Assembly: GCA_965541585.1 (NCBI GenBank)
Contig: CBEUCH010000002.1
Location: 224,001-288,000 of the forward strand
DNA from: an uncultured bacterium
GTDB lineage: Bacteria > Zixibacteria > MSB-5A5 > UBA10806
Length of the DNA stretch: 64,000 bases
Direction: 5' to 3'
Part shown: one piece after another, positions 11,616 to 29,172 of the stretch
Numbering within the stretch: position 1 is the first letter of the stretch
How the letters are laid out: each line of letters starts with the position of its first letter
The notes under the pieces: generated by a model
What the model was told of the DNA's origin: nothing
The model's database searches: none
The model's input: only the letters and a program-made list of their open reading frames with translations
Translations under genes and position numbers: made by a program

Positions 11616-12200
11616 ATGGAAAAGAAAGCGAAATTGAAAGACGGCAGTGAGGTTCTCATCAGAGAGCTGAGAAAGGACGACATAGGCAGATCCCATGCCT
11701 TTTTTCGGGCACTTCCCAAAGAGGATAGGGCCTACCTTCGTGTCGATGTCACAAGGCGGGAAGTTGTTGAACGGAGAATCAAGGCCATGGAATCGGGAGA
11801 GGTCAGTCGGCTGGCAGCTCTTGTCGGGGATGAAATCGTGGCCGACGGATCTCTGGAACGAGAAATTCTGGACTGGAAAAAACATATAGCGGAATTGCGA
11901 CTGATTGTAGCACATTCATTTCAGCGCAAGGGACTTGGCCTCTTGATGGCTCGTGAGCTTTTTGGGCTGGCTGCCAGCCAGAAGGTTGAGGAGATCCTTG
12001 TGAGGATTATGGCGCCACAGGTCGGAGCCCTGAGCATTTTTAAAAGGCTTGGATTCCATCAGGATGCCATCCTGCACGATTACGTGAAGGATATTGACGG
12101 CAAAAAACAGGACCTTATTTTGATGCGGTGTGATCTGGAGTCACTCTGGCAAAAGTTGGGGGATTTTATGGATGATTTCGACTGGCAACGTTCCCGTTGA
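11616..12200 (+). CDS. GNAT-family N-acetyltransferase
   Basis: LKDGSEVLIREL; FQRKGLG motif A; FKRLGF. Confidence 0.85.
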   Translation: MEKKAKLKDGSEVLIRELRKDDIGRSHAFFRALPKEDRAYLRVDVTRREVVERRIKAMESGEVSRLAALVGDEIVADGSLEREILDWKKHIAELRLIVAHSFQRKGLGLLMARELFGLAASQKVEEILVRIMAPQVGALSIFKRLGFHQDAILHDYVKDIDGKKQDLILMRCDLESLWQKLGDFMDDFDWQRSR

Positions 12201-12284: not shown

Positions 12285-12312
12285 TTGACAAAAAACCATA
12301 TATGGTTATCTT
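12285..12312 (+). promoter_or_regulatory. Sigma70 promoter of the aromatic operon, with a palindrome in the spacer
   Basis: TTGACA 12285-12290, 16-nt spacer, TATCTT 12307-12312. Perfect palindrome AACCATATATGGTT at 12294-12307. Confidence 0.7.
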
Positions 12313-12321
12313 GCATTTGTG

Positions 12322-12411
12322 ATGGCAGAGTTGAGAAATAGCATTCGTTTGTCCCGCTATTATTGGTGGTATGGATATAAATACGATCGGATAGCGGCTT
12401 CTGCCTATTAG
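12322..12411 (+). CDS. Attenuator leader peptide (Tyr/Trp-rich), 29 aa MAELRNSIRLSRYYWWYGYKYDRIAASAY
   Basis: Hand translation: 6 Tyr, tandem Trp-Trp, 0 Phe. Lies directly upstream of a terminator and trpE. In-frame GTG at 12319. Confidence 0.88.
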   Translation: MAELRNSIRLSRYYWWYGYKYDRIAASAY

Positions 12412-12449
12412 CTGAGAATCGAAAAATCAATTAAGAGCCTGCTGTCCGA
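12354..12449 (+). promoter_or_regulatory. Alternative attenuator helices (1:2 protector, 2:3 antiterminator)
   Basis: CCGCTAT 12354-12360 pairs with ATAGCGG 12391-12397. Alternatively, TCGGATAGCGGCT 12387-12399 pairs with AGCC(T)GCTGTCCGA 12436-12449, the terminator 5' arm. Confidence 0.82.
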
Positions 12450-12469
12450 CGAGGACAGCAGGTTTTTTT
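12436..12469 (+). terminator. Attenuator terminator (3:4)
   Basis: CCTGCTGTCC-gacga-GGACAGCAGG perfect 10-bp stem plus T7, 11 nt before the trpE ATG. Confidence 0.9.
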
Positions 12470-12480
12470 GTGGAGAATTT

Positions 12481-13947
12481 ATGGATTTAACAGACATTTT
12501 GAAGAGTAACAGCAGAAAGGCCGTACTGGAGCCGTTGATTGCCGATCTTCCGGCTGATCTTGAAACGCCTGTTTCAGCGTTCTTGAAGCTGAGGCCTGTG
12601 GGGGCGAAGTTTCTGCTGGAGAGTGCGGACGGCATAGAACTAACCGGACGATATACGTTTATCGGCATCAGGCCGAGATTCAAAGTCAACATTTTCCGGG
12701 AAAAATCTGTAATTGTCTCTCCGGGGAGGACGGATGATTTCCTGCATTCGGGTATGGGAGATCCGTTTTCGGCCCTGCGACATATAACAAAGTCCATAAG
12801 CCTGGAATCGAATCCTTCAAGCCTGACTCTCTTAGGAGGGCTCGTCGGTCATATCAATTACGAGATGGTTGGCTTTTTCGAACCGCATCTCGGCCTGCTT
12901 GACGATTGTAACGAAACGCACCTGGCCAGCTTTTATATGGTGGATACTCTTCTTGTATTCGATCATTTCACGAGGCGGATGCAGGTCATCGCGCTGATTC
13001 CGAAGGGAAGTGATTCGGCAAAGGTAGAAGGAGAAAGGACAATCGATGAGATTTTGTCCGCGCTCAGATCGGATATAGAAATTCCACCAACCAAAGCGAC
13101 AGAATCAAACGAGAATTTCAGATCGAATTTCACGCAGGAGCGTTTTGAGAAGATTGTCGAGGATGCCAGAGGACATATACTAAAAGGAAATATATTTCAG
13201 GGCGTCCTTTCCCAGGCTCTGAAGGCCAGAATCGATATAGACAGTTTTCAGATTTACCGCGCCCTTAGAATGTTAAATCCCTCTCCTTATATGTATTACC
13301 TGGATATGGACGGCCTGGCGTTGATAGGGTCCTCGCCCGAAACCATGGTGAAATTAAGCGGAGACGTTGCCACGCTCCGTCCCATAGCGGGTACTCGTCC
13401 CAGAGGAAAGGATGAAACAGAGGATAGGCGGCTCGAGAAAGAGCTTCTATCCGATGACAAGGAGAGGGCCGAACATATCATGCTTGTCGATCTGGGGCGC
13501 AATGATCTTGGCAGAGCGTGCGAGTACGGGTCCGTGGCTGTCGACAAGCTGATGGAGGTCGAGCGTTTTTCGCACGTCATGCATTTAACCTCGACCGTCA
13601 CCGGCCGGCTGAAAAAGGGAAAGGACCAGTTCGATCTGTTCAGGTCGGCTTTTCCTGCAGGCACAGTCACAGGGGCACCGAAGATCAGGGCCATGGAGTT
13701 GATACGCCAGCTTGAAGGACAGCCCCGCGGACCATACGCCGGAAGCGTTGGATATTTTTCATTATCGGGGGATATGGATACGTGTATTACTATCAGGACC
13801 ATCATAATGAGGGGAAACGAGATTATTCTGCAAGCGGGCGCCGGAATCGTTGCGGATTCCAAACCTCAATTCGAATATCAGGAAACATTGAATAAACTCC
13901 AGGCTCTCAAAGCCGCCGTGTCAAACGCAGAAGGGGGATTGACATGA
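12481..13947 (+). CDS. trpE: Anthranilate synthase component I
   Basis: ADLETPVSAF, FLLESA, NPSPYM, PIAGTRPRG, KERAEHIMLVDLGRND, FPAGTVTGAPKIRAM. Confidence 0.97.
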   Translation: MDLTDILKSNSRKAVLEPLIADLPADLETPVSAFLKLRPVGAKFLLESADGIELTGRYTFIGIRPRFKVNIFREKSVIVSPGRTDDFLHSGMGDPFSALRHITKSISLESNPSSLTLLGGLVGHINYEMVGFFEPHLGLLDDCNETHLASFYMVDTLLVFDHFTRRMQVIALIPKGSDSAKVEGERTIDEILSALRSDIEIPPTKATESNENFRSNFTQERFEKIVEDARGHILKGNIFQGVLSQALKARIDIDSFQIYRALRMLNPSPYMYYLDMDGLALIGSSPETMVKLSGDVATLRPIAGTRPRGKDETEDRRLEKELLSDDKERAEHIMLVDLGRNDLGRACEYGSVAVDKLMEVERFSHVMHLTSTVTGRLKKGKDQFDLFRSAFPAGTVTGAPKIRAMELIRQLEGQPRGPYAGSVGYFSLSGDMDTCITIRTIIMRGNEIILQAGAGIVADSKPQFEYQETLNKLQALKAAVSNAEGGLT

Positions 13948-14513
13948 TAGTCTTTGTGGATAACTACGACTCGTTCATTTACAATATCGTTCAATACGTC
14001 GGACCGATCGACCCGGATCTAAAGGTTTTCCGCAATGATGAAATCGATCTCGAGGGTGTAAGAAAGCTCAGACCCCGCAAAATTATAATCTCGCCCGGCC
14101 CGGGTCATCCGGATGACGCAGGCATCTCGTGTGAGATTGTTAGAGCCTTTTTCGATAAGATTCCCATACTGGGCATTTGTCTGGGGCATCAGGCAATAGC
14201 CAGGGCGTTTGGCGGCGAAGTAGGAGAGGCTCCTGAACTTCTTCATGGGAAATCGTCGCAGGTCTTCCATAAAGCTATTGGAATCTTGAATGGCATGCCA
14301 AATCCGTTTACAGCCGGGCGATATCATTCGCTGGCTGTGTTCGAAGAGAAGCTGCCCGACTCGCTCGAGGTAATAGCCTATACATCGAAAGGCGACATCA
14401 TGGGGATAAAGCACCGCCAGTATCCCGTTTATGGATTGCAATTTCACCCTGAGTCGGTCCTTACCGAAGGCGGGGAGAAGATAATAGCAAACTTTCTGAA
14501 TGGTAACATATGA
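13944..14513 (+). CDS. trpG: Anthranilate synthase component II (glutamine amidotransferase)
   Basis: DNYDSF, ISPGPG, GICLGHQ, RYHSL, QFHPES. Confidence 0.96.
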   Translation: MIVFVDNYDSFIYNIVQYVGPIDPDLKVFRNDEIDLEGVRKLRPRKIIISPGPGHPDDAGISCEIVRAFFDKIPILGICLGHQAIARAFGGEVGEAPELLHGKSSQVFHKAIGILNGMPNPFTAGRYHSLAVFEEKLPDSLEVIAYTSKGDIMGIKHRQYPVYGLQFHPESVLTEGGEKIIANFLNGNI

Positions 14514-15523
14514 GTAATAAGGAAATTGTATCAAAATTGATCGGCGGATCGGATCTGACCGCTGAGGAGACCGAACAATTTATGGGAGATATTGCCGACG
14601 GCAATCTTGCCCCCGCCCGGAGCGCCGCGTTTCTCACGGCGCTGGCAATCAAGGGAGAAACTCCCGAGGAGATAGCCGGATGCGCAAAGGCATTTCGTGA
14701 CAGGTCGCTTAAGGTACCGCATAATCAGAAGATGGTATTTGATTGTTGCGGCACCGGCGGCGACGGTTCGGGGAGCTTCAATATATCGACTGCCGTGGCA
14801 TTTGTTATGGCGGCCTGCGGTGTTCCGACTGCCAAGCATGGTAATCGCTCCATTTCGTCCCTTTGCGGCTCGGCTGATGTTCTGGAGGAATTGGGAATTA
14901 AGATCGGTCTCAAGCCGAAATCTGCGGCCACCTGTCTCGATGAGATAGGTATCTGTTTTATCTTTGCCCCATTTTACCATCCGGCGATGAAACACGCCGC
15001 GCCTGTCAGAAAGGAGCTTGGTTTTAGAACCGTTTTCAATCTTCTAGGCCCTCTGATGAATCCGGCGGATGCAACGCATCAAATAATAGGTGCGCCGTCT
15101 ATGGATATAGGACGGAAACTGGCTATGACTGCATTTCGCCTGAAGAGCGGTGAGATTCGGCTTTTGTATAACTCGGAGGGAATGGATGAACTGGTGCCGT
15201 TCGGGGAAAACTGGATAATATCGGCCGGTGAGAATGGTGTGGAAGAATGCAGATTAGATATTGCCTTTATCGGCCGCGCAGATAAATCGAGTATAAAAGG
15301 CGGTTCGGCAGGTGAGAACGCCCCCATCATAAAGAAAATATTCGAAGGGGAAAAATCACCCCGGAGAGATGCGGTCGTCCTTAACGCCGCTGTGGGATTG
15401 GTATTAACCGATACAGCATCGGATTACAAAGAGGGCATGAAGGTGGCGGAGGAAACCATTGACTCCGGAATGGCGGCCCTGAAGCTGGAAAAATTGATAG
15501 AACTCTCAAATAGACTCGTGTGA
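14510..15523 (+). CDS. trpD: Anthranilate phosphoribosyltransferase
   Basis: DCCGTGGDG, NIST, AKHGNR, GSADVLE, RTVFNLLGPL. Confidence 0.97.
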   Translation: MSNKEIVSKLIGGSDLTAEETEQFMGDIADGNLAPARSAAFLTALAIKGETPEEIAGCAKAFRDRSLKVPHNQKMVFDCCGTGGDGSGSFNISTAVAFVMAACGVPTAKHGNRSISSLCGSADVLEELGIKIGLKPKSAATCLDEIGICFIFAPFYHPAMKHAAPVRKELGFRTVFNLLGPLMNPADATHQIIGAPSMDIGRKLAMTAFRLKSGEIRLLYNSEGMDELVPFGENWIISAGENGVEECRLDIAFIGRADKSSIKGGSAGENAPIIKKIFEGEKSPRRDAVVLNAAVGLVLTDTASDYKEGMKVAEETIDSGMAALKLEKLIELSNRLV

Positions 15524-16305
15524 TGTTGGAAAAGATAGTCTCAACAAAAAAGAGGTCGCTTGGCGCCATTGACAGGGGAAGATGGGAGGACCAACTTCGG
15601 TCGATGCTTTCCAATATTCCACCTGTTAATTCTTTTATCGATGCAATTACGGGGAAGGACAAACCGGCCCTGATTGCCGAGTTTAAAAGAAGATCGCCGT
15701 CCGCGGGGACTATCAATGATTCAGTCGACCCGGTCGAACAGGCCATTCTTTATGAGAAGGGTGGAGCATCGGCGGTTTCGGTTCTAACCGAGGAGGATTA
15801 TTTCGGCGGACGCCTCGATGATATCGGGAAGATAAAATCAGCAGTCGGGTTACCAATTCTGCGGAAGGATTTCATATTCGATCCTCTTCAGATATTGGAA
15901 GCCCGAGCGGCCGGAGCAGACGCAGTTTTGCTGATTGTCGGGATTCTGGATTTTGGAATATTAAAGACTCTTCTGGATGAGGCTGCACGCCATAATCTTG
16001 ACTGTCTTTGCGAGGTTCATTCGGAAGCCGAAATAGAGACGGCTCTCTCCTGCGGAGCGCGAATGATAGGCATAAACAACCGAGATTTAAACACTTTTGA
16101 AATCAACCTTGATGTAACAAAACGTCTGCGTCCGGAGATACCGGAAAATATCACGGTAGTTTCTGAGAGCGGTATTCATACGCCGGAGGACGTTGCGTTT
16201 GTCCGGCGCTGTGGTGTGGACGCCATACTTGTAGGCACCGAACTGATGAAGGCGCGCGATGTCTCAGGGAAGATTGCGGAGATAATGGGATGTCGGCCAA
16301 GGTAA
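15520..16305 (+). CDS. trpC: Indole-3-glycerol-phosphate synthase
   Basis: IAEFKRRSPS, SVLTE, LRKDF, GINNRDL, SESGI. Confidence 0.97.
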   Translation: MMLEKIVSTKKRSLGAIDRGRWEDQLRSMLSNIPPVNSFIDAITGKDKPALIAEFKRRSPSAGTINDSVDPVEQAILYEKGGASAVSVLTEEDYFGGRLDDIGKIKSAVGLPILRKDFIFDPLQILEARAAGADAVLLIVGILDFGILKTLLDEAARHNLDCLCEVHSEAEIETALSCGARMIGINNRDLNTFEINLDVTKRLRPEIPENITVVSESGIHTPEDVAFVRRCGVDAILVGTELMKARDVSGKIAEIMGCRPR

Positions 16306-16868
16306 AAATTTGCGGCATCACAAATCTCGAGGACGCGCTGCTCTCTCATACGCTCGGCGCGGACATGCTGGGCATGATATTTGCCAGAAGTCCAAGGAGA
16401 ATATCTATTTCTACGGCAGCTGATATCGCTTTACGGCTTTCGGGAAAGGTCGCTCTGGTCGGCGTATTCTCAGATCCTGACGATCCTCAGATTGGTGAAG
16501 TTTGTGAAAGGATCAAGCTGGATATGTTACAGATCTATTTCGGTGAAAACGTCAACGGATTTCCCAGCTATCCGCTTCCCATTTTACCCTCATACTGGGT
16601 CAAAGAGAAAACGGATATTTCAAAGATCGAATTAGCCGGATCACTGCTCGATTTCAAGAGGGCTCCTCGCTTGCTCGGGAAATGCCGATCTGAGAATATC
16701 GATATGAGCGAAGCGATCCTTGCCGGAGGGCTGCACAGTGGAAATGTGGACAGTATTTTAAAAACCCTTAAGCCCTTCGGAGTGGACGTGGCACGGGGGG
16801 TTGAGAGCGAACCGGGGAAAAAAGATAAGGCCAAGCTCGAGCAATTCATCCGGAAGGTGAAATCATGA
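16290..16868 (+). CDS. trpF: Phosphoribosylanthranilate isomerase
   Basis: [31 protein letters not shown]. Confidence 0.9.
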
Positions 16869-18052
16869 AAGTCCCCGATCGATTCGGTTTCTTCGGTCCC
16901 TACGGCGGCCGTTACGTTCCCGAGACCTTGATATCTGCTCTGGACGACCTTGAACAAGCCTTTGATAAATATAGAAAAGACGGGGATTTCATTTCCGAGC
17001 TTAACGGTCTTCTTAAGGACTTTTCCGGCAGGCCGACTCCGCTTTACGAGGCGGCCAATATCTCGCGACGCTGGGGAGCGAAAATCTATCTTAAACGTGA
17101 AGATCTGAACCACACCGGCGCGCACAAGATAAACAACACGCTGGGCCAGGCGCTGCTTGCCAGAAGGCTGGGGAAAACGAGAATAATCGCGGAAACCGGC
17201 GCGGGTCAGCATGGAGTCGCAACGGCATCGGCCTGTTCTCTATTAGGACTAAAATGTATCGTTTATATGGGAATAATCGATGCCGCCCGGCAGAAGCCCA
17301 ACCTTTTGAGAATGCAGATGATGGGAGCCGAGGTGGTGGAGGTAAAATCGGGATCGGGCACGCTCAAAGACGCCTGCAACGAGGCTATACGTGATTGGGT
17401 GGCTAACGTCGACGACACGCATTATATCATCGGCTCAACCGTGGGGCCCCATCCCTATCCTCTGCTGGTAAGGCATTTTCAAAAGATTATCGGGGAAGAG
17501 ACCCGACGTCAGATTATAGCCAAAGAAAACAGGCTTCCCGATTATGTATTCGCTTGTGTGGGAGGCGGCTCAAACGCTCTGGGTATATTTCATGGTTTTT
17601 TGAAAAATAATGGTGTCGGTCTGGTAGGAGTCGAATCCGCCGGGCATGGCCTGAGAAGCGGGCGTCACGCGGCCACATTGGCCCGCGGAAAGCCGGGTGT
17701 ACTTCATGGTTCGTTGTCGTATCTGTTGCAGGATGACGATGGTCAAATTGTTCCCACGGAAACACAGGCGGCCGGTCTCGATTACCCTGGGGTTGGGCCC
17801 GAACACAGTTACTTAAAAGATATCGGAAGAGTCCGGTACCTGTCGGTTACGGATAAACAGGCGGTCGATGCCTGCTTTGAGCTTTCCCGTTACGAAGGGA
17901 TAATCCCGGCGTTGGAATCATCGTACGCTCTGGCGGCCGTTAAGCGACTCGCAAAGGGCGAGGGAAAAGGGAAGCTGATCGTGGTGAATCTCTCCGGAAG
18001 GGGAGATAAAGACCTCGATAGCATAAAGGATTATGAAAACGGCAATAAGTAG
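16865..18052 (+). CDS. trpB: Tryptophan synthase beta subunit
   Basis: [45 protein letters not shown]. Confidence 0.98.
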
Positions 18053-18827
18053 AAAACTCGGCAAACGAGGTGGGCGAAAGGCGCTGGTGCCTTACCTGAC
18101 CTGTGGCTTTCCCGATATGAACAGCTTTGAAAGTCTGGCTCTTTCTGTATGCGACGCGGGAGTGGATATGATTGAAATCGGGCTCCCGTTCTCAGATCCG
18201 CTCGCCGATGGGCCGACAATACAATATTCGTCGAAGACGTCGCTGGATAACGGGTTTAACCTCGAAAGAGGTTTCGCTTCCATCAAGCGGATCGCCGGAA
18301 GCACCGAAATACCGATTATCGTTATGACCTACCTGAATATCATCAGCGCCATGGGGGAGACAAAATTCTTTCGGCAATGCAGAAAAGCGGGTATCTCGGG
18401 ATTGGTGATACCTGATCTTCCCGCCGATCTATCCCATGATATCGGGAGGGCGTGTAGAGAGTTTTGTATAGATCTGGCATTATTGGTTGCCCCAACGACC
18501 CCGGTCGAGAGGATTAAAAAGATCGCCGGGCAATCGAGGGGTTTTCTATATCTGGTTTCAGTAAAAGGGACAACAGGAAAGCGAGATCGTTTTCCGCCCG
18601 GGACACTGTCGTTTATACGGAGAGTAAAAAAGCTTTCGCCTGTTCCCGTACTTGTCGGCTTCGGGATTTCCAGTCCCGCCATGGCCGCCATGGCGGCACG
18701 CTACTCAGATGGTGTCATAATTGGCAGCGCCCTGATTGATATCATTCGAAACAACGGTGATCCGCGCAAAGCATCGATACAATTGAAATCGTTTCTTCAA
18801 TCCATAGAAAAGGAGATGAATTCTTGA
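18033..18827 (+). CDS. trpA: Tryptophan synthase alpha subunit
   Basis: [41 protein letters not shown]. Confidence 0.97.
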
Positions 18828-19192
18828 GAACAAGAGGTGTAAGAGGGGCAATAGTCGTGAAGGAGAATACACGCGAGGCGATTTTCGAAGCCACCGTGGA
18901 GCTTCTGGAGGAAATACTAAAGAAAAACTCGATTCCCACCGAGGAAATCGCGTCGATATTTTTGACGGCGACCACCGACGTTGATGCGGAATTCCCGGCC
19001 TATGCCGCTCGTCGCATGGGTTTGACCTCGGTTCCTCTCCTATGCGCTCGGGAGATGGAAGTCCCCGGCGCTATGAAAGGCGTTATCAGAGCTTTGATAC
19101 ATTTTAATACCGAGAAAAAACAATCGGAAATTATAAATCGATACCTGGGAGAGGCGCAGAAGCTTCGTCCCGACCAAGGAGTAGAAAATTGA
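18824..19192 (+). CDS. aroH: Chorismate mutase, AroH class
   Basis: RGVRGA, AEFPAYAAR, PLLCAREMEVPG, YLGEAQKLRPD. Confidence 0.93.
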   Translation: MRTRGVRGAIVVKENTREAIFEATVELLEEILKKNSIPTEEIASIFLTATTDVDAEFPAYAARRMGLTSVPLLCAREMEVPGAMKGVIRALIHFNTEKKQSEIINRYLGEAQKLRPDQGVEN

Positions 19193-20205
19193 TGATCGTA
19201 GTAATGGAGAAAAAGGCCACCGCCAGGCAGATTGGGGCGGTGATAACGAAGATCCAATCGCAAGGTTGCCAGGCGCATATCTCGGAGGGGACGGAGAAAA
19301 CCATTATAGGCGTAATGGGCAACGGTTCTGGGCTTGACAAATCAAAATTGCGGATACTGGACGGCGTGGAAGATATTATACCGATTCTCAAGCCGTACAA
19401 GCTGACATCGCGAGAATTCAAGTCGGAGCAGACAGTGGTCACGGTCAATGGCGCGCGAATAGGCGGAACAAAGATAGCAGTAATTGCCGGTCCCTGCGCG
19501 GTTGAATCGTACGAGCAAACGCTGGCGGCTGCGAAGGCGGCAAAGGCCCATGGTGCAGGGTTGATGCGCGGGGGAGCCTTTAAACCTCGCACGTCGCCTT
19601 ATTCATTTCAAGGGAAGGGAAAGGAGGGGCTGGAGATCCTGGCTCAGGTGAAAAGAGAAGTGGGGTTACCCATAGTGACGGAGGTTATTTCCCCGGAAGA
19701 CGTGGAACTTGTGGCGCAATATGTCGATGTCCTTCAGATCGGAGCCAGGAACATGCAGAATTTCGCTCTTCTGGAAGTGGTGGGGAAAAGCGATAAACCC
19801 GCGCTGCTCAAGAGGGGGATGATGTCCACTGTAGAGGAGTTGTTGATGTCGGCGGAATATCTTCTTTCCAACGGCAATCGAAATGTTATTTTGTGCGAGA
19901 GGGGCATCCGGACGTTCGCAAAAATCACCCGGAACACTCCCGATCTCGCGGCCATACCCGTTATAAAGAAACTATCGCACCTCCCGGTAATTTTCGATCC
20001 GTCTCATTCTACAGGTAGAAGAGATCTTATTCTTCCCATGTCGGCGGCAGCGATAGCCTGTGGAGCGGACGGTATAATTGTCGAGATACATCCTGCACCC
20101 GAGGAAGCGCTATGCGACGGCGAACAGAGCCTTACGTTCGATGCATTCGCTGAAATGATGAAATCTCTATCGCGCCTTGCGGGCGCTGTGGAGAGGAGCC
20201 TGTGA
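19189..20205 (+). CDS. aroF: DAHP synthase type I-beta with N-terminal ACT-like regulatory domain
   Basis: MIVVM N-domain; IAGPCAVES, GGAFKPRTSPYSFQG, QIGARNMQNF, CERGIRTF, DPSH. Confidence 0.95.
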   Translation: MMIVVMEKKATARQIGAVITKIQSQGCQAHISEGTEKTIIGVMGNGSGLDKSKLRILDGVEDIIPILKPYKLTSREFKSEQTVVTVNGARIGGTKIAVIAGPCAVESYEQTLAAAKAAKAHGAGLMRGGAFKPRTSPYSFQGKGKEGLEILAQVKREVGLPIVTEVISPEDVELVAQYVDVLQIGARNMQNFALLEVVGKSDKPALLKRGMMSTVEELLMSAEYLLSNGNRNVILCERGIRTFAKITRNTPDLAAIPVIKKLSHLPVIFDPSHSTGRRDLILPMSAAAIACGADGIIVEIHPAPEEALCDGEQSLTFDAFAEMMKSLSRLAGAVERSL

Positions 20206-21068
20206 GCAGACAGCCGGCCCATACCGTCGGAATGCTTGGCCTGGGTCAGATGGGGGGTTCGCTGGCCATGGCTCTGAAATCCAGCAGGCAATCCTGGACC
20301 GTTTCAGGTTACGATATCAAAAGATCGCTTACAAAGCGGGCAAAACAGGATGGGATTATAGATAAGGCAAATGTTTCCGAGGTAGATCTGATCGAGGGAT
20401 CGCAGACGGTCGTCCTGGCATTACCTGTCAATATTATTCTGGAGGTTATGGCACGCCATAAACGTATGCTTTCGACAAAAACGCTGGTTGTGGATCTGGG
20501 AAGCGTGCGCGGTTCCATCCAGAGGGTCTCATCCAGATTGAGAATGAAAAACCATGTCGGTATTCATCCCATTTGCGGCACCGCCCTTAGGGGAGGATCG
20601 GCGTGGAATGGGAGATTATACGAAGGGGCCTCCTGTTTCGTCTTTTCGAATGAGTCGACTAATGCCAGAGCTATAACCTTTGCGAGAAAACTTATAAGGG
20701 CTACAGGCGGCCAGCCTGAGACTATCGATTTTCATAATCATGATCGCGCCTTTGCCGTAACAAGTGGTCTTCCACATATTCTTGCATATTCCTTAATGAA
20801 AGTGAGGACCGGTTCACGATATATCCCGGTTGAATTGGAGGGCCCGAGTTTTGCGGGGGCTACCAGAGTTTCAGCCAGCGACCCTGTAATGGCGGGGCAG
20901 ATGCTGTATCATAATCGTGATAATCTGCTGAAGGCGGTCTCGAGGATTGAAAAGAATATCGTAAGAATCAAAGAACTTCTTTCAAAGGGCGATCTTGAGA
21001 AGCTTATTCTGACGCTGGAGAGTTATGGGAAAACGAGTCGAAGGTCGGTTAAAGCTCCCCGGGGATAA
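20202..21068 (+). CDS. tyrA: Prephenate/arogenate dehydrogenase
   Basis: GLGQMGGS, DLGSV, GIHPICG, HDRAFAVTSGLPH. Confidence 0.88.
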   Translation: MSRQPAHTVGMLGLGQMGGSLAMALKSSRQSWTVSGYDIKRSLTKRAKQDGIIDKANVSEVDLIEGSQTVVLALPVNIILEVMARHKRMLSTKTLVVDLGSVRGSIQRVSSRLRMKNHVGIHPICGTALRGGSAWNGRLYEGASCFVFSNESTNARAITFARKLIRATGGQPETIDFHNHDRAFAVTSGLPHILAYSLMKVRTGSRYIPVELEGPSFAGATRVSASDPVMAGQMLYHNRDNLLKAVSRIEKNIVRIKELLSKGDLEKLILTLESYGKTSRRSVKAPRG

Positions 21069-22290
21069 ATCGATATCGCATCGCGCCCTTATACTGGCGG
21101 CGATATCGGACGGGGAATGCACAATTGAGAACCTGTCGCCGGGTCTGGATACTGAGTCAACGGCAAAATGCCTGAGCGACCTGGGAGTGAAAATGTGCAC
21201 GAAGAATGGAAAGCGCCGGATTTCCGGATTGGGTTTCCGCAATTTCAAAATCCCCGCTGCAATCCTCAACTGTGGTAATTCGGGGACGACTCTCAGGCTT
21301 CTTACAGGTTTACTGGCGGGCTCCAACATTGAGGCCGTTCTCGACGGGGATGAATCTTTAAGGCGCCGTCCGATCAATAGGGTCATAGATCCCTTGAAAA
21401 ATATGGGAGCCGATATCGAAACCACCGATGGCAATGACGGATGCCCCGTAAGAGTTCATGGCATGCAGCTTAAGGGCGTCTCTCAAATATTGAATGTACC
21501 GAGCGCGCAGGTGAAAACGGCCGTCTTGCTCGCGGGGCTTTTAGCCGAAGGAACGACTGAATTGATACAATCCGCAGACACGAGAGACCATACCGAGAGA
21601 ATTCTATCACATCTCGATGTCGATATAAAAACGGATTACGGGATAATAACTCTTAAACCGCCTGAGAACCTCAAACCGTTCGATGTCAGCGTTCCTGCAG
21701 ATCCATCCTCAGCCGCGTTCCCTGTTGTGGCCGCTCTATTGTTGCCTGGTTCCGAATTGACTCTGTATGATCTTTTACTGAATCCAGGTCGCATTGGATA
21801 TATGCGAATATTAGAGTCAATGGGGGCCGATATTGAAGTCGTGAACAAGAATAAACAATATGGTGAGACGGTTGGTGAGATTGTCGTTAAATCTTCATTA
21901 TTAAAAACCATAGACGTGGAGGCAGGCGAGGCACCATCATATATAGATGAAGCCCCGATCCTGGCTCTGGCAGCAAGCCAGGCGGCGGGACAAAGTGTAT
22001 TTCGGGGACTTTCCGAGTTGAGAGTTAAGGAATCGGACAGGTTAACGAATATTATGAGAATCATCAACATTATGGGAGGAAAAGCGTCAATCAACGAAGA
22101 CGACCTGGTTATAGAAGGTCCGTCGAGGTTGAAATATTACGATGGAGATTGTTATGGAGATCACAGGCTGGCAATGATGATTGAGACAGGTAACATTATT
22201 TCGTCCGGAGCAATGAGCGAGAAATATGGCGACGTGGCGGAGGTTTCATTCAAAGGTTTCTATGATACTATGAAGGGAGCGCTGATTTAA
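21025..22290 (+). CDS. aroA: EPSP synthase
   Basis: PGDKSISHR, CGNSGTTLR, SAQVK, RDHTER, LRVKESDR, DHRLAM. Confidence 0.96.
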   Translation: MGKRVEGRLKLPGDKSISHRALILAAISDGECTIENLSPGLDTESTAKCLSDLGVKMCTKNGKRRISGLGFRNFKIPAAILNCGNSGTTLRLLTGLLAGSNIEAVLDGDESLRRRPINRVIDPLKNMGADIETTDGNDGCPVRVHGMQLKGVSQILNVPSAQVKTAVLLAGLLAEGTTELIQSADTRDHTERILSHLDVDIKTDYGIITLKPPENLKPFDVSVPADPSSAAFPVVAALLLPGSELTLYDLLLNPGRIGYMRILESMGADIEVVNKNKQYGETVGEIVVKSSLLKTIDVEAGEAPSYIDEAPILALAASQAAGQSVFRGLSELRVKESDRLTNIMRIINIMGGKASINEDDLVIEGPSRLKYYDGDCYGDHRLAMMIETGNIISSGAMSEKYGDVAEVSFKGFYDTMKGALI

Positions 22291-23088
22291 ATGAAACCGC
22301 CCCGATTATATGGCCTTCTGGGGCATAATATATCGTATTCGCTGTCGCCGTATATGTTCAATACCATATTTAGGAAGCGGGGGATGAACAGTCTGTATAT
22401 GCCTTTTGATATAAAGCGAAACCATCTCCGGAAATTTACCGAGTCCGTGAGATTACTGGGAATCTCGGGTTTCAATGTAACGATTCCGCATAAGCTACAA
22501 GTAGCCAGATATCTCGATGACCTCGATAATTCCGCAAAGTCGGTTGGTGCGGTTAATCTCGTTATCTTTAGGAAAGGCAAACTTGTAGGATATAACGTTG
22601 ATCTGCATGGAATAAAAGGGACAGTAGAGAACCATCTGAAATTTCCGCTTAATAATCGTCGGGTGGTCTTGATCGGGGCCGGAGGTGCGGCGAGAGCTGT
22701 CATCGAATACCTTCGTAAGTCAAAACCGGGATCGGTCATTCTGACGAATAGAACGATAAAACGAGCAAGAGAGCTGCAGGATATATCGCGGGTACCAATT
22801 GCAAAGATCGTGCGTCTTGAAAAACTGAGCCGATGCATTGAAGATCTCGGTGTCGATATAGTCATAAATGCCACACCTGTGTCGACGCCCTCTATTTTGA
22901 AAAGTATCCCTTCCGGATTGAGGATATTCGACATGTCTTACAAACCGTCTGAATTTCCATACGGAAAGAGCCGTATCCGTTGCGACGGTAAATATATGCT
23001 GGCGGCTCAGGCGGCTCGCAGTTTTTCAATACTCTGTGGGGTAAAGATACCGGCTGATGAAATGTTCAAATTAATCAGGGGGAAATGA
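22291..23088 (+). CDS. aroE: Shikimate dehydrogenase
   Basis: SLSP, GFNVTIPHK, GAVN, GAGGAARA, NRT, INATPV. Confidence 0.93.
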   Translation: MKPPRLYGLLGHNISYSLSPYMFNTIFRKRGMNSLYMPFDIKRNHLRKFTESVRLLGISGFNVTIPHKLQVARYLDDLDNSAKSVGAVNLVIFRKGKLVGYNVDLHGIKGTVENHLKFPLNNRRVVLIGAGGAARAVIEYLRKSKPGSVILTNRTIKRARELQDISRVPIAKIVRLEKLSRCIEDLGVDIVINATPVSTPSILKSIPSGLRIFDMSYKPSEFPYGKSRIRCDGKYMLAAQAARSFSILCGVKIPADEMFKLIRGK

Positions 23089-23089
23089 A

Positions 23090-24220
23090 TTGCGTTATCT
23101 TAGTTCCGGTGAATCTCACGGGCCTGCGTTGACCGTAATTATCGAAGGTCTACCGGCGGGCATCAAGATAGATCGGCGTCTGATTACAAAGGCGCTCAGT
23201 AACAGGCAAAAGGGATTTGGGCGGGGAGACAGGATGAAAATCGAATCCGACAGGCCCGAGTTCCTCTCCGGATTGATGCGCGGGAAAACAACAGGCAGTC
23301 CGCTTACTATTATGATACGCAATCGCGATTGGGATAACTGGAAAGATAGAAAACACCCTAAAAAGACGGTTCCCAGGCCCGGTCATGCAGACCTCACGGG
23401 TATGTTAAAATACGATACCGATGATATTCAGATGATAATCGAGAGAGCGTCGGCGAGGGAGACGGCTGCAAAAGTGGCGGCAGGAAGCATCGCGAAAATT
23501 TATCTTCAAAGTTTTGGCATTAAAATAATTGGCCATACTGTTGGGTTGGGAGGAGTTTTCGTCGATGATGTCCCGGACGACTACGATCGAATAAAGGCAT
23601 TGGTTGAGAAATCGGATCTCCGATGTGCAGATAGAAACTCGGCTGCCGAGATGAAGAAAAGAATTAAGAAGGCTATGGATAAAGGAGACACGGTAGGGGG
23701 GGCGGTAGAGGTCAGGGTATTCGCAGTCCCGCCGGGGATAGGAAGCTACGTGCAGTGGGATCGTCGTCTTGACGGGCGTCTGGCACAGGCCTTGATGTCA
23801 ATACCCTCTGTTAAGGCTGTCGAGCTGGGGGAGGGGTTTGCCAATGCAGCGCGCCCGGGAAGCGACGTTCATGACCCTGTATATTACTCGTCGAAGACCG
23901 GATATTTCCGCAAGAGTAACCGCGCCGGCGGGATCGAGGGGGGAATGTCTAACGGGGAGACGATTCTCGTCAGGGCCTACTTAAAGCCGATATCGACCTT
24001 GCGCAATCCGCTTGATTCCGTTGATACAAAGAATCACAGGGCGGTAAAAGCACCTTATGTCAGATCGGATACGGCCGTTATACCGGCGGCGAGCGTAGTG
24101 GCCGAGGCGGCGACAGCCTGGACTATCGCGACCTGCTTTGCTGAAAAGTTTGGCGGCGATTCTATCGAAGAATCGCTGAGAAACTACAAAGGTTACCTCA
24201 AACAGATTAAAAAACGATGA
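23090..24220 (+). CDS. aroC: Chorismate synthase
   Basis: GESHG, PRPGHAD, ERASARETA, NRAGGIEGGMSNG, KPISTL. Confidence 0.97.
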   Translation: MRYLSSGESHGPALTVIIEGLPAGIKIDRRLITKALSNRQKGFGRGDRMKIESDRPEFLSGLMRGKTTGSPLTIMIRNRDWDNWKDRKHPKKTVPRPGHADLTGMLKYDTDDIQMIIERASARETAAKVAAGSIAKIYLQSFGIKIIGHTVGLGGVFVDDVPDDYDRIKALVEKSDLRCADRNSAAEMKKRIKKAMDKGDTVGGAVEVRVFAVPPGIGSYVQWDRRLDGRLAQALMSIPSVKAVELGEGFANAARPGSDVHDPVYYSSKTGYFRKSNRAGGIEGGMSNGETILVRAYLKPISTLRNPLDSVDTKNHRAVKAPYVRSDTAVIPAASVVAEAATAWTIATCFAEKFGGDSIEESLRNYKGYLKQIKKR

Positions 24221-24732
24221 ACGATAAAAGGAACATAATCATATGCGGCTTTATGGGCACCGGTAAGAGCGTGGTCGGAAAGGCCGTTTCATTAGCTCTC
24301 GGTTTTGATTTTGTGGATACCGATAGTCTCGTTGAGAACAGGTGCGGAAAGACCATTGCAGAAATATTCCATGACGATGGAGAGGAATACTTTCGAGATC
24401 GGGAGAAGGAGATTCTATCTCATTTGCCGGTGCACAATACTGTCATAGCTGCAGGGGGAGGGATGATTATCGATCGGGGAAATTACAGACGGCTTTCAGG
24501 ATTGGGCCTGATGATACTTCTAACGGCGTCGGTGGATACCATATGCAAAAGGATTGGGAATAATGGTTCCCGACCGCTGCTATCCGGCGAAAACTTGAAT
24601 GAAAAGGTGCAGGGTTTACTTTCTCTCAGGCAGCCTGTTTATGACAGAATTGAATATAGGGTTAATACCGATCGAATGAATGTTGCCGATGTTTGCGACG
24701 CCGTGACAAAAATATATCGGGAAAACGCATGA
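24217..24732 (+). CDS. aroK: Shikimate kinase
   Basis: GFMGTGKS P-loop, DTD, GEEYFRDRE, GGG, RPLL. Confidence 0.95.
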   Translation: MNDKRNIIICGFMGTGKSVVGKAVSLALGFDFVDTDSLVENRCGKTIAEIFHDDGEEYFRDREKEILSHLPVHNTVIAAGGGMIIDRGNYRRLSGLGLMILLTASVDTICKRIGNNGSRPLLSGENLNEKVQGLLSLRQPVYDRIEYRVNTDRMNVADVCDAVTKIYRENA

Positions 24733-25805
24733 AAACAGAAATAACTGATTCTGATATAATGGTTGGCAGGGACCTGTTCAGCAGCTTGAAGGATATTATT
24801 GACTTCACTTCTTATTCATCATCTTTCTTGCTCACGGACAACAATATATTTACGGTGTATTCTGATAAGATAGGGAGGATCTTCGGCGAGGAAATGGAAA
24901 GCGGAAGATATTTATCCCTTCCCGCTGGTGAAAAAAGTAAAACGCTACAATTTGTGGGCCGGATAGGTGAGAAGATGCTGTTGTCGGGATTGGATAGGCG
25001 TTCGGTTCTTATAGCTCTGGGCGGCGGTGTGATCACTGATATCGGAGGGCTGGCTGCATCGATGTACATGCGGGGTATTGATTTCGTAAACATACCGACC
25101 ACGCTTGTAGGTCAAATCGACGCTTCCCTGGGTGGGAAATGCGGAGTTAATCTAAAATCCGCCAAGAACATCATGGGGCTGTTCTCTCTGCCCCGGAAAA
25201 TTATTATCGATCCCGGCTTTCTGGATACCTTAACGAGTCAGCAGATATGTGATGGCATGGTGGAGCTTCTGAAGATCGCCGCTGTGGCTGATTCCGATCT
25301 GTTCAGCAGGCTGGAATCTATTCAGTGCGATCTTGAGGGCGTGAATGATTCTATAAAGCTGGAGTTGATAGAAAGAGCCGCCCGATTGAAACTAACTGTT
25401 GTCGACAAGGATTTTCGGGAGAACGGTTACCGGATGGTCCTCAATTTCGGGCATACTACGGGACACGCGATGGAGGCGTGCGCCGGATACGGAAAATTCA
25501 GCCATGGCCAGGCCGTAGGCGTCGGAATTTTAGTGGCGGCCGAGCTATCCGATATCATCTGCCGGTTCAACGCCGGGGATAAAGGGAGATTGAAGAATGC
25601 GGTGAAATCGCTTCTGGAAAAGACGAACATCCCGGGTATTGGTGGCGGCGAGTTGTGGGATAGGATCCAATATGATAAGAAGAAGGACTTGGGAGACGTC
25701 AAATTCACGCTTCTGGAAGACCTGGGAAAGCCGCAAATTAAGACTGTGTCAAGGGATCAATTCTTGGCTGCCTATGATACAGTTTGTAAGGAGCTTTCAA
25801 GATGA
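24729..25805 (+). CDS. aroB: 3-dehydroquinate synthase
   Basis: GEKSK, ALGGGVITD, PTTL, DASLGGK, LNFGHTTGH, HGQAV. Start at ATG 24729 (ATGA overlap). Confidence 0.95.
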   Translation: MKTEITDSDIMVGRDLFSSLKDIIDFTSYSSSFLLTDNNIFTVYSDKIGRIFGEEMESGRYLSLPAGEKSKTLQFVGRIGEKMLLSGLDRRSVLIALGGGVITDIGGLAASMYMRGIDFVNIPTTLVGQIDASLGGKCGVNLKSAKNIMGLFSLPRKIIIDPGFLDTLTSQQICDGMVELLKIAAVADSDLFSRLESIQCDLEGVNDSIKLELIERAARLKLTVVDKDFRENGYRMVLNFGHTTGHAMEACAGYGKFSHGQAVGVGILVAAELSDIICRFNAGDKGRLKNAVKSLLEKTNIPGIGGGELWDRIQYDKKKDLGDVKFTLLEDLGKPQIKTVSRDQFLAAYDTVCKELSR

Positions 25806-26242
25806 AAAAAGTCTTCGTTATTCACGGACCGAACCTCAATTTACTGGGAAAAAGGGAACCCGATATCTATGGCGGCTCAACGCTTGATGAAATAAACGAG
25901 CGCATATCCCGAGAGGCGAAAAGAATCGGGATCGAATGCGAGTTTTTCCAGAGCAATATAGAGGGGGAACTGGTTGATATCGTCCAGAAGGCAGGGGAGA
26001 AGGCTGACGGCATCATAATAAATCCTGCCGGCTATAGTCATACGTCGGTGGCGCTGCTCGACGCTCTTAAGGCTGTCGATATTCCCAGAGTCGAGGTTCA
26101 TCTTTCGAACATCTTCGCGCGCGAAGAGTTTCGACGCACCTCGTTGACGGCATCCGGGTGCACCGGATCGATATCCGGCTTGGGAGTTGAAGGCTATCTG
26201 CTGGCCCTGCGTTATATTTCAGTCCTTTTGGATCGCGACTGA
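25802..26242 (+). CDS. aroQ: Type II 3-dehydroquinate dehydratase
   Basis: HGPNLNLLGKREPDIYG, QSN.EG, INPAGYSHTS, EVHLSN. Confidence 0.97.
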   Translation: MKKVFVIHGPNLNLLGKREPDIYGGSTLDEINERISREAKRIGIECEFFQSNIEGELVDIVQKAGEKADGIIINPAGYSHTSVALLDALKAVDIPRVEVHLSNIFAREEFRRTSLTASGCTGSISGLGVEGYLLALRYISVLLDRD

Positions 26243-26631: not shown

Positions 26632-29172
26632 ATGTTCAGATTATTTGTGATTCTATTGTTCCTATCGAATTCGGTTCTGGCAAATGTTGTATTTGCCGAT
26701 CCTGTCAGGGAGCGAGATGAATTAGATTCTCTCACCGTTTTGAAGGTTTTGAAGTCAGAACAACTGGTAGGACTGCAAGCAGATAAAATTGTTGATCTTC
26801 TTTGTGACTTAAGCACTTCCTTTTCCCATCAAGCGCCATCGATTGACACGCCGGACAGGTTTTCACTTGTGATTCTGCACACAAACGATCGATTGGGCTA
26901 CCTCACGAACCTTTTCGATACCAGTGACTCACTTGTTCACAGGCCTATCATTATTGCCCACTTAGCGCAGAAAATCAGAGAATGCTTTCAAAAAGACTCA
27001 ACGGTAAAAGTTTTGCTATTGGATGCCGGAAACGCCATTGGTCCAAACCCACTTTCCGCTGATACTGCAGCACCAGGTGCCGGCACGAGAGCTATAAAAT
27101 CTCTTGAATGGGCAGGTTACGATGCAATGGCAATGGCGGTCCATGAGTTCGACTATGAAAATTTTCCATGGCTGACAAAGATAGAATCAAAACTTTCCGT
27201 GCTCTCGGCAAACGTTCATATCACGGAAGCCCCGCTAAAAGATCGTGCTGTTTCCCTGAAACCCAGCAAGACAATCACTCTGGATGGTATTTCTGATGGA
27301 AAAATTGTCATCGTTGGAGTCACAAGCTCGGATACAACAAATATCCTTGAGAGTCGTAGAAAGGGTTTGAAATTCACCAACCCGCTTAAAGCTTTGGAAG
27401 GATTGTTAAGTTCTCTAAAGAATAAGAACCCAAAACCAGTAGTCATAGTCCTGGGGAAATTAGATCATACGACAGAATCAAGATTGGCAAACGAATTTCC
27501 CGGTGTCCATGTAATCGTAGGTGGAGTAGGTCATAACGAGGGAAAATCTCCCGATCGTATGGAAGGACAGAGCTTCCTTATGGATGGCACGCCAATACTG
27601 TCTGCAAAGCCGTATTGCCTTTCTCTGGGCTTTTGCCATCTGACTTTCGAGAAATCTGCGACCAGTAATTCGGACTCGGTTTTTAAGATAACCAGAGGAT
27701 TTTTTGCATCCATACCGATAGTAGAAGACATGGTAGACACAGCTTCTCTTGATCCACAACTAAAAGAGGCGAATCATTACCTTAATGAGCGGACCCAAGA
27801 TCTTCTAGGAGAAAAAAGAAACCCGAAGGCCCCCGTAGCAACAGATACAATAAGGGAAGCTGGAGTCGTGGCTGAAATTATCAGACGGAGAATAAGGGCA
27901 CAGGTGTCATTGTTGAACAAAGACGCGCTGGACTTGACTGTTCCCTGGAAGAGTCGAGGAAAAACAAAAACCTATTTAATACGGGAAGGAGATAAGATTA
28001 CACCGGCTCATCTGGAAGTAATGTTTCCTTATCCGGACAAACTTATTACCCTTATGCTCTCCGGGGAAAATTTAAAAGCGGTTCTGGACAGATCTCAACA
28101 AAATGAGAAATCGCCGGCGGAACTGGTTTATGCCGGCGTAGAATGGGACAAAAGCAAAGCAACGTGGCTGGTGAATGACAGGCCGTTGAAAGATGATGAG
28201 ACCTACAAGGTGGTGACAAACAATTTCTTAGCCAGCGAAGGAGCGGGATACTCCCAGTTGAGGTCGGAGGATTTGGAGGGACCGGACGTGCGAAAAGAAG
28301 TAGAACTGTTTCTAAGCGATGAGGCTGATTACCCGCGATATGATTCAAAACGTTCTTTCGAGGAAGGATTCCTCAAAATCAATTATACTTTTGCGGGCAG
28401 CTTTTTGAGGAACCAGAGCTGGAATCATAATAGTTATACAGGCACAGTTCTTCCCTGGAAACCAGAGTATCAACTAACCTTTAAAGAATATATGCTCAGG
28501 GGGGATTTTAAAGCCACCTATGTCAAGGGCAAGAGCGATATTTCTCTGTCAATTACCGATTTTGACTACGATACCAGAATCCTGGCTGACAGTACCGATG
28601 TCAGAAGAGATGAGGCCACTCTAATATTAAAGTACGAACGCACGCGGGAATTAGGACTCGGTTCTGTGTTAATATCCCCATACACCGCTTACCAATATAT
28701 TCCTGATCTATCCGAGCTTTTTCGCAAACGAGCCTTTTTTGGCGATAATAGGATAGAGATTGGCGCATTCTTTTTCGATGATAAGGAGTGCTTAAAGGTC
28801 AAAGCAGCACCCCTGACGTTTCGATTGAACAAGGATACGACACCTTCGCCCTGGCAATATGGTTTTCTTATAGGACTTAATGTAAAGGAGAAACTACCGG
28901 AACCTCTGACGAAACTGATTCCTATCTTAACGTTAGAAGATACTAAGATTAACGTAGGCATAGAATTTTTCTGGTATTCTATTAAGGGGGGATTTATCAT
29001 ACAATCTGCGGACAAAGGAATAAGTATTCGTACTCCCCTTATATCGTCGATCCATCTTGACATGGGTTTTGATCTGCGTTTCTATTATAGCCGGGCGGTT
29101 GGTAAATGGAGCTACAATATCAGACCAACCCTTGAGATTAAATATGAGGGAATATCAAGAATCTTTAAGTAA
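26632..29172 (+). CDS. Secreted 5'-nucleotidase-like protein (metallophosphoesterase + 5'-NT C-domain) with degenerate metal ligands and an extra C-terminal beta-rich domain
   Basis: GAGGAGG RBS; signal peptide; ILHTND, LLDAG, HEFD, LSANV, FPY, YKVVTNNFLA..G.GY. Confidence 0.72.
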   Translation: MFRLFVILLFLSNSVLANVVFADPVRERDELDSLTVLKVLKSEQLVGLQADKIVDLLCDLSTSFSHQAPSIDTPDRFSLVILHTNDRLGYLTNLFDTSDSLVHRPIIIAHLAQKIRECFQKDSTVKVLLLDAGNAIGPNPLSADTAAPGAGTRAIKSLEWAGYDAMAMAVHEFDYENFPWLTKIESKLSVLSANVHITEAPLKDRAVSLKPSKTITLDGISDGKIVIVGVTSSDTTNILESRRKGLKFTNPLKALEGLLSSLKNKNPKPVVIVLGKLDHTTESRLANEFPGVHVIVGGVGHNEGKSPDRMEGQSFLMDGTPILSAKPYCLSLGFCHLTFEKSATSNSDSVFKITRGFFASIPIVEDMVDTASLDPQLKEANHYLNERTQDLLGEKRNPKAPVATDTIREAGVVAEIIRRRIRAQVSLLNKDALDLTVPWKSRGKTKTYLIREGDKITPAHLEVMFPYPDKLITLMLSGENLKAVLDRSQQNEKSPAELVYAGVEWDKSKATWLVNDRPLKDDETYKVVTNNFLASEGAGYSQLRSEDLEGPDVRKEVELFLSDEADYPRYDSKRSFEEGFLKINYTFAGSFLRNQSWNHNSYTGTVLPWKPEYQLTFKEYMLRGDFKATYVKGKSDISLSITDFDYDTRILADSTDVRRDEATLILKYERTRELGLGSVLISPYTAYQYIPDLSELFRKRAFFGDNRIEIGAFFFDDKECLKVKAAPLTFRLNKDTTPSPWQYGFLIGLNVKEKLPEPLTKLIPILTLEDTKINVGIEFFWYSIKGGFIIQSADKGISIRTPLISSIHLDMGFDLRFYYSRAVGKWSYNIRPTLEIKYEGISRIFK

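Follow-up and report, generated by a model that had tools for sequence, protein, structure and literature searches.

The window, by which we mean the whole 64,000-nucleotide stretch of DNA analyzed here, comes from a member of the Zixibacteria, to our knowledge an uncultured phylum, and carries a 16-gene operon for tryptophan, tyrosine, and shikimate biosynthesis preceded by a short leader region (Table 1). All 15 junctions within the operon abut or overlap, the intergenic distances ranging from −44 to +1 nt. An AroH homologue with 93% identity to that of the operon is assigned to candidate division Zixibacteria. Directly 5′ of the leader promoter lies a GNAT-family acetyltransferase gene (11616-12200) that shows no sign of belonging to the system, and positions 26632-29172 encode an 846-aa protein that resembles 5′-nucleotidase/metallophosphatase clusters and has a long C-terminal extension. 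Searches of the genome, which is 98% complete, returned no match for pheA, TrpR, TRAP, or T-box elements; the TRAP search (PF02081, no match in this one genome) was positive in a B. subtilis control, and the T-box riboswitch (RF00230) matched neither the leader nor the genome. A gene for a class IV aminotransferase, likely the aromatic transaminase, lies 3′ of aroQ or tyrA in many relatives (e.g., L077:14803-15696); the window's operon does not include it.

Table 1. Features of the leader and operon in the window, and related elements in other genomes.
Feature	Position	Strand	Remarks
Promoter, σ70-type	12285..12312	+	TTGACA-16-TATCTT; 10/12 match; start site predicted near 12319
Leader peptide ORF	12319..12411	+	probably leaderless; GTG 12319 or ATG 12322; stop TAG 12409-11
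Segment 1, anti-antiterminator	12354..12360	+	exact complement of 12391-12397, 7 bp
Control codons Tyr-Tyr-Trp-Trp-Tyr	12358..12372	+	from footprint folding and conservation; Y19 (12376) marginal, Y21 (12382) outside
Segment 2	12387..12399	+	alternative partners: segment 1 or segment 3
Helix 2:3	12387-99 with 12436-49		13 bp, one bulge
Intrinsic terminator	12433..12469	+	segment 3 12436-49, loop, segment 4 12453-62, U7 12463-69
Shine-Dalgarno-like site of trpE (GGAG)	12470..12480	+	by sequence; outside terminator stem
trpE, trpG, trpD, trpC, trpF, trpB, trpA	12481..18827	+	
aroH (chorismate mutase), aroF-type DAHP synthase, tyrA (prephenate dehydrogenase)	18824..21068	+	
aroA, aroE, aroC, aroK, aroB, aroQ	21025..26242	+	
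Tandem units (G209)	L084:598-952		
Tandem units (G208, G195, G196, G192)	L102, L097, L103, L121		
Trp-only copy (G189)	L188:4316-4454	minus	before stand-alone trpB-like gene
Trp-only copy (G187)	L133:11463-11612		before short fragment like the end of a trpB-like gene
Trp-only copy (G188)	L161:1151-1287	minus	

A reading made from the sequence only had placed in this region an unannotated 29-aa leader with an aromatic control tract, two mutually exclusive helices (1:2 and 2:3), and a terminator of 10 bp followed by T7, and all of these are present where it put them. The leader ORF has an ATG start (12322-12411, MAELRNSIRLSRYYWWYGYKYDRIAASAY*), and its aromatic tract extends from Y13 (beginning at 12358) to Y21 (ending at 12384). 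A GTG lying upstream in frame at 12319 gives a 30-aa version of the leader and, in the leader alignment, lines up with the ATG of the corresponding ORFs of G007 and G109. The promoter was not among the features listed earlier; its −10 element ends 6 nt from this GTG and no Shine-Dalgarno site is present before the leader ORF, so the leader is probably leaderless. Across the genome, the starts of long ORFs peak 6 to 8 nt past −10 boxes (34 of 99 placements, counted at distances of 0-30 from 631 promoter-like sites), and the layout of promoter and leader is common to most relatives. The leader is a short upstream ORF in which codons for the operon's own products are clustered, and in a chance check covering 88 strong terminators genome-wide and 31 short upstream ORFs, only the window's leader had at least four Tyr/Trp codons within six; the window's element was also the only one with a promoter match among the candidates listed. 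Scans of six leader peptides against NCBIfam and Pfam gave no match above cut-off. Within four DNA sequencing runs, relatives vary at 12374-12399, Y21 included, and no change falls inside 12358-12372 among 40 of 124 rows listed.

The intrinsic terminator lies between the leader ORF and the first gene, and its stem comprises 10 Watson-Crick pairs (12438-47/12453-62) followed by T7 and can be lengthened to 15 bp; its folding energy is −25.5 kcal/mol (z −6.7), and the entire leader has z −5.4. The antiterminator, helix 2:3, excludes the terminator. Our terminator scan missed this plus-strand terminator, probably by extending the stem into the U run. With an E-value limit of 10, an Rfam scan of the leader gave five matches; each scored far under its gathering threshold, and the Trp_leader and Phe_leader families were not among them.

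The effect of a ribosome on these helices was modeled by folding with a masked footprint. In a first scheme, which used partial transcripts and masked 18 nt behind and 12 nt ahead of the A-site codon, the probability of 2:3 was 0.98-1.0 for A sites from Y13 to Y19 and fell to 0 at K20, Y21, and the stop codon. In a second scheme it stayed at 0.9 or higher as far as G18, was 0.7 at Y19, and did not exceed 0.5 beyond. Such a switch had been anticipated from the sequence, and these computations reproduce it: a stall at the control codons would free segment 2, a stall at K20 or Y21 would block it, and onward translation would cover it. In the second scheme, most of the 57 leaders lose 2:3 at or just past their Y/W tract. 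On the strength of the footprint folding, the predicted control window is Y13-Y17, which is narrower than the full Y-Y-W-W-Y-G-Y-K-Y tract first proposed: Y13 to Y17 stand as effective control codons, Y19 is marginal, and Y21, replaced by Cys in the nearest relative (G007), falls outside. At equilibrium, the full terminator always dominates on transcripts ending at 12462 or later, so that read-through would need 2:3 to have formed first, as a kinetic trap. The fold predicted with no ribosome is ambiguous at equilibrium, with 2:3 at 0.2-0.7 in the first scheme and 1.0 in the second.

Conservation was followed in 285 genomes, the class and phylum searches covering the same set. This type of trpE occurs in 54 of them, and regions were taken for 52 of the 53 other genomes, with upstream DNA missing or cut in G061, G105, G227, and G241. 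A Trp-containing leader and a terminator were found in 49 of 49 readable cases (48 relatives and the window's own genome). In an alignment of 51 of the 57 leaders, from which six near-identical copies of one genus were left out, 98.9% of cells in the terminator are paired and 9 of 11 pairs show two-sided changes; for the antiterminator 2:3, the values are 95% and 5 of 9. Pairing of both helices is far above that of slid controls, and the shuffle controls ignore kinship. Helix 1:2 is paired in 81% of cells in one fixed register, compared with 60% for slid controls. The peptides are 25 to 51 aa long and vary widely in sequence outside the tract. Both the covariation and the Tyr/Trp conservation that the sequence-only reading named as checks upstream of trpE are thus found. 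A more distant trpE type has 11 loci in the class, and the five of these that were read in the correct orientation show no leader; a contig search gave 29 distant trpE loci.

Five genomes carry two full leader-plus-terminator units in tandem before trpE (Table 1); read-through of both would be required, which could give a sharper response. Only 2 of the 14 genomes of the window's own family have this trpE type. The TrpE of this pair groups with that of G109, which belongs to a different family and also has the closest leader, and this coincidence suggests joint transfer of the operon and its attenuator.

The leaders are found before operons of differing gene content, and codon content tracks operon content. 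Three operon classes were defined by gene content, and codons were counted in a nine-codon window placed by geometry relative to segment 2, in the frame richest in Tyr plus Trp. Before operons with both trp genes and tyrA (42 leaders from 38 genomes, the class being inferred across contig breaks in six of these genomes and likewise in G108), at least two Trp codons are present in 42 of 42 leaders and at least two Tyr codons in 38 of 42 (mean 2.7 Tyr and 2.8 Trp). Where the operon has trp genes and no tyrA (12 leaders, 11 genomes), all 12 leaders keep at least two Trp, only three have at least two Tyr, and seven have none (mean 0.67 Tyr and 3.3 Trp). The pattern is reversed before aroH-(aroF)-tyrA operons that lack trp genes, in which all 19 leaders have at least two Tyr and none has as many as two Trp (no Trp in 15, one in four; mean 4.7 Tyr and 0.2 Trp). 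Two lone trpB-like loci, a gene and a fragment, have 0 Tyr and 3 Trp. Eight reverse-strand terminator matches and one truncated leader were left out before counting. Three copies that precede genes of other or unexamined kinds stayed unclassified, and a separate count was kept for four leaders whose sole link to their operon crosses contig ends; each of the four has at least two Tyr and at least two Trp.

In G187, G127, and G128, the trp genes and the tyrA operon lie apart, and the latter is headed by a second copy of the element, with runs of Tyr and no Trp. These copies were spotted by eye ahead of any model, and a covariance model trained mostly on Trp-rich leaders then recovered 15 further Tyr leaders in 80 more genomes, plus one in G108; model matches below ~35 bits include ordinary terminators (G015, G175, G176, G272, and G195) and were set aside. 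G187, G127, G128, and G108 thereby have one Trp-rich and one Tyr-rich copy each, before the matching genes. Exceptions exist in both directions: 4 of the 42 mixed-class leaders have fewer than two Tyr, the leader of G028 reads Phe-Phe-Arg-Trp-Trp and has no Tyr, and the trp-only operons of G182, G183, and G128 retain two. Outside the count, aroH-tyrA is preceded in G095 by a degenerate Tyr/Cys leader and in G039 by no leader at all. The leaders before aroH in G095 (L193) and G108 (L189) hold many Cys among their Tyr codons, possibly Tyr tracts that have decayed by one-base changes.

Phylogenetic comparison leaves few independent contrasts. The TrpE tree has four changes of operon class, three on starred branches, and of its 3 independent pairs, 2.7 follow the prediction for Tyr count (median p 0.25); the TyrA tree has eight changes, five on starred branches, with at least five switches, and Trp count goes as predicted in 5 of 5 pairs (p 0.0625). 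Both tests are non-significant and point in the same direction. Individual cases can be followed in detail. The leader of G127, which is Tyr-only, has 79% mean column identity with those of G142 and G143, which are mixed; where these read TGG TGG it has TAC TCG, and a compensated change runs through segments 2, 3, and 4. In G050, which the TyrA tree places as sister to the window's genome, the same variant of the terminator follows a leader of the Tyr-only kind.

Further variants of the scaffold were seen. Phe codons occur in some leader windows (mean 0.43; G028, G058, G161, and G151), and in L075 (G028), L165 (G161), and L174 (G151) Phe replaces or joins Tyr, the operon regions read being without pheA; from these codons, Phe may be an input in some relatives. 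Matches to pheA were obtained in 24 of the 54 genomes, none of them within the operons read, and 15 pheA upstream regions showed no leader-plus-terminator. For the window's own genome, Phe was considered as a third input and rejected, there being no pheA match. L171:1410-1641 (G260, a genome with 9% contamination) places a Cys-rich short ORF, with two Cys-Cys pairs and then Trp-Trp, on the scaffold ahead of a gene that is cysteine synthase-like by eye, and is a possible cysteine attenuator. In L190:3254-3383 on the minus strand (G211), ORFs of 603 and 464 aa that have the appearance of ABC-transporter subunits follow a scaffold-like element whose leader closes with four Gly codons.

We propose, with a probability of about 0.8, that the window's leader is a ribosome-mediated transcription attenuator that would allow read-through into the trp-tyr-aro genes when Tyr-tRNA or Trp-tRNA is scarce. 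The conserved codons, the covarying helices, and the match between codons and operon all support the original suggestion that stalling at either Tyr or Trp codons is the signal. Transcription would begin near 12319 and the ribosome would initiate on the leaderless message. With both amino acids plentiful, it would pass codon 19 and cover segment 2, which lies inside the ORF, leaving 3:4 and U7 to stop the transcript near 12469. With either scarce, it would stall within Y13-Y17 and mask segment 1, segment 2 would be free, and 2:3 would form before segment 4 leaves the polymerase, such that the operon, presumably including all 16 genes, is transcribed. The leader would in this way act as an OR gate for both products that the operon can make, with Phe left out of the gate because the genome has no pheA match. 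We also consider it likely that a single scaffold has had its control codons rewritten at each operon fusion or split, the series running from Tyr plus Trp before the joint operon, through Trp before trp, to runs of Tyr before aroH-tyrA, with tandem copies in five genomes; the window's leader would then truly sense either Tyr or Trp, and its Tyr-only sisters would be tyrosine-specific attenuators.

The leader could alternatively sense Trp only, its Tyr codons being a by-product of RNA structure (the CGC TAT of segment 1) or of U-rich sequence. The first Tyr codon, Y13, falls within segment 1 and hence in the 1:2 helix, so part of its conservation is structural; TAT is favored over TAC by 155 to 59 in the leaders as against 65 to 44 within the operon; the motif RYWWWY is kept in G182 and G183, both without a tyrA match; and aroR of C. 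glutamicum is a precedent for a Tyr codon with, reportedly, no Tyr response (PMC11802643). We nevertheless regard this explanation as unlikely, given that the 19 aroH-tyrA leaders on the same scaffold have two to seven Tyr and at most one Trp per window, and that 7 of the 12 trp-only leaders lack Tyr yet keep the helices.

Somewhat less probable still is that the Tyr/Trp attenuator is real and acts mainly on the proximal genes, distal tyr and aro genes being expressed also from internal promoters. The operon is 14 kb long and has 12 plus-strand promoter-like matches within it, but such matches are near chance (24, compared with 16.3, sd 4.2), all 15 junctions in the operon overlap or abut, and it would be difficult to account for the retention of Tyr codons where the operon has tyrA if tyrA did not depend on the leader. 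Recurrence of a DSG motif and the conserved-looking hydrophobic N-terminal halves of some peptides could speak for sensing of free aromatics by the nascent peptide or an RNA-binding protein (TnaC-, TRAP-, or T-box-like), with codon stalling secondary; DSG is, however, simply the translation of segment 2, the peptides are diverse in length and in sequence outside the tract, and neither a TRAP or T-box match in the genome nor an Rfam match above gathering scores was obtained, which makes it very improbable. The attenuator reading, if true, extends classical attenuation to tyrosine and to the Tyr plus Trp pair, and does so in an uncultured phylum. Homologous leaders that differ almost only in their control codons would form a natural series in which an RNA regulator is re-specified at operon fusion or split, and the 200-nt element is a possible protein-free biosensor for Tyr or Tyr/Trp.

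The element has the anatomy of the classical attenuation class, and its proposed mechanism is that of the textbook; the new part would be the use of Tyr and the Tyr plus Trp pairing. The leader-peptide attenuators trpL and pheL of E. coli work by ribosome stalling, and the window's element resembles them in its small upstream ORF, whose cognate codons overlie segment 1, in its mutually exclusive 2:3 and 3:4 helices, and in its intrinsic terminator before trpE; the alternative helix 1:2 is perfect over 7 bp in this genome and less consistently paired in relatives. It differs from them in having Tyr and Trp codons together, in being probably leaderless, in placing segment 2 inside the ORF, in heading a 16-gene trp, tyr, and shikimate operon, and in matching no Rfam model. 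Multivalent attenuators such as thrL (Thr and Ile) and ilvL/ivbL have long been known and likewise interleave codons for more than one end product in one leader, as an OR gate; an IlvL is also present in S. lividans (PMC8079986). The integration of two amino acids, proposed in the sequence-only reading, is consequently not new in itself; what remains new is the aromatic pair Tyr and Trp, whose inputs separate in relatives when the operon splits. That reading also knew of no characterized Tyr-sensing leader, which agrees with our survey of mainly open-access literature, seen in part: we found no demonstrated Tyr-sensing or Tyr plus Trp leader, earlier predictions of which may exist, and no description of attenuators in Zixibacteria. 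The six attenuators reported in Shewanella include none for Tyr (PMC3223726), and in Acholeplasma a Phe uORF precedes aroF (PMC8632094).

Closer comparisons come from systems in which Tyr or tyrA is involved, in each case as far as the accessible portions of the sources go. The aroR leader of C. glutamicum (Neshat 2014) reads Phe-Tyr-Phe and reportedly responds to Phe and ignores Tyr (PMC11802643); like the leader described here, it contains Tyr and precedes a gene for DAHP synthase, whereas the window's leader has runs of Tyr and no Phe, and relatives have Tyr-only versions. In Vibrio, Thermus, and others, attenuators have been predicted ahead of operons that contain tyrA (PMC1173090, in whose available text the word "leader" does not occur), and a 1980 tyr-tRNA hypothesis for E. 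coli aroF-tyrA has been cited (PMC2659441). These resemble the present elements as proposed premature terminators in front of operons with tyrA, and differ in that a Tyr-codon leader peptide, found here, is not described in the text available for them. A leaderless short ORF as the sensor has parallels in actinobacteria, namely the leaderless trpL1 of S. lividans, a species for which the eight leaders listed include none for Tyr (PMC8079986), and the leaderless polycysteine sORFs that serve as attenuators in mycobacteria. From these, so far as they are described in the portions available, the Zixibacteria leader is set apart by its phylum and by its Tyr codons.
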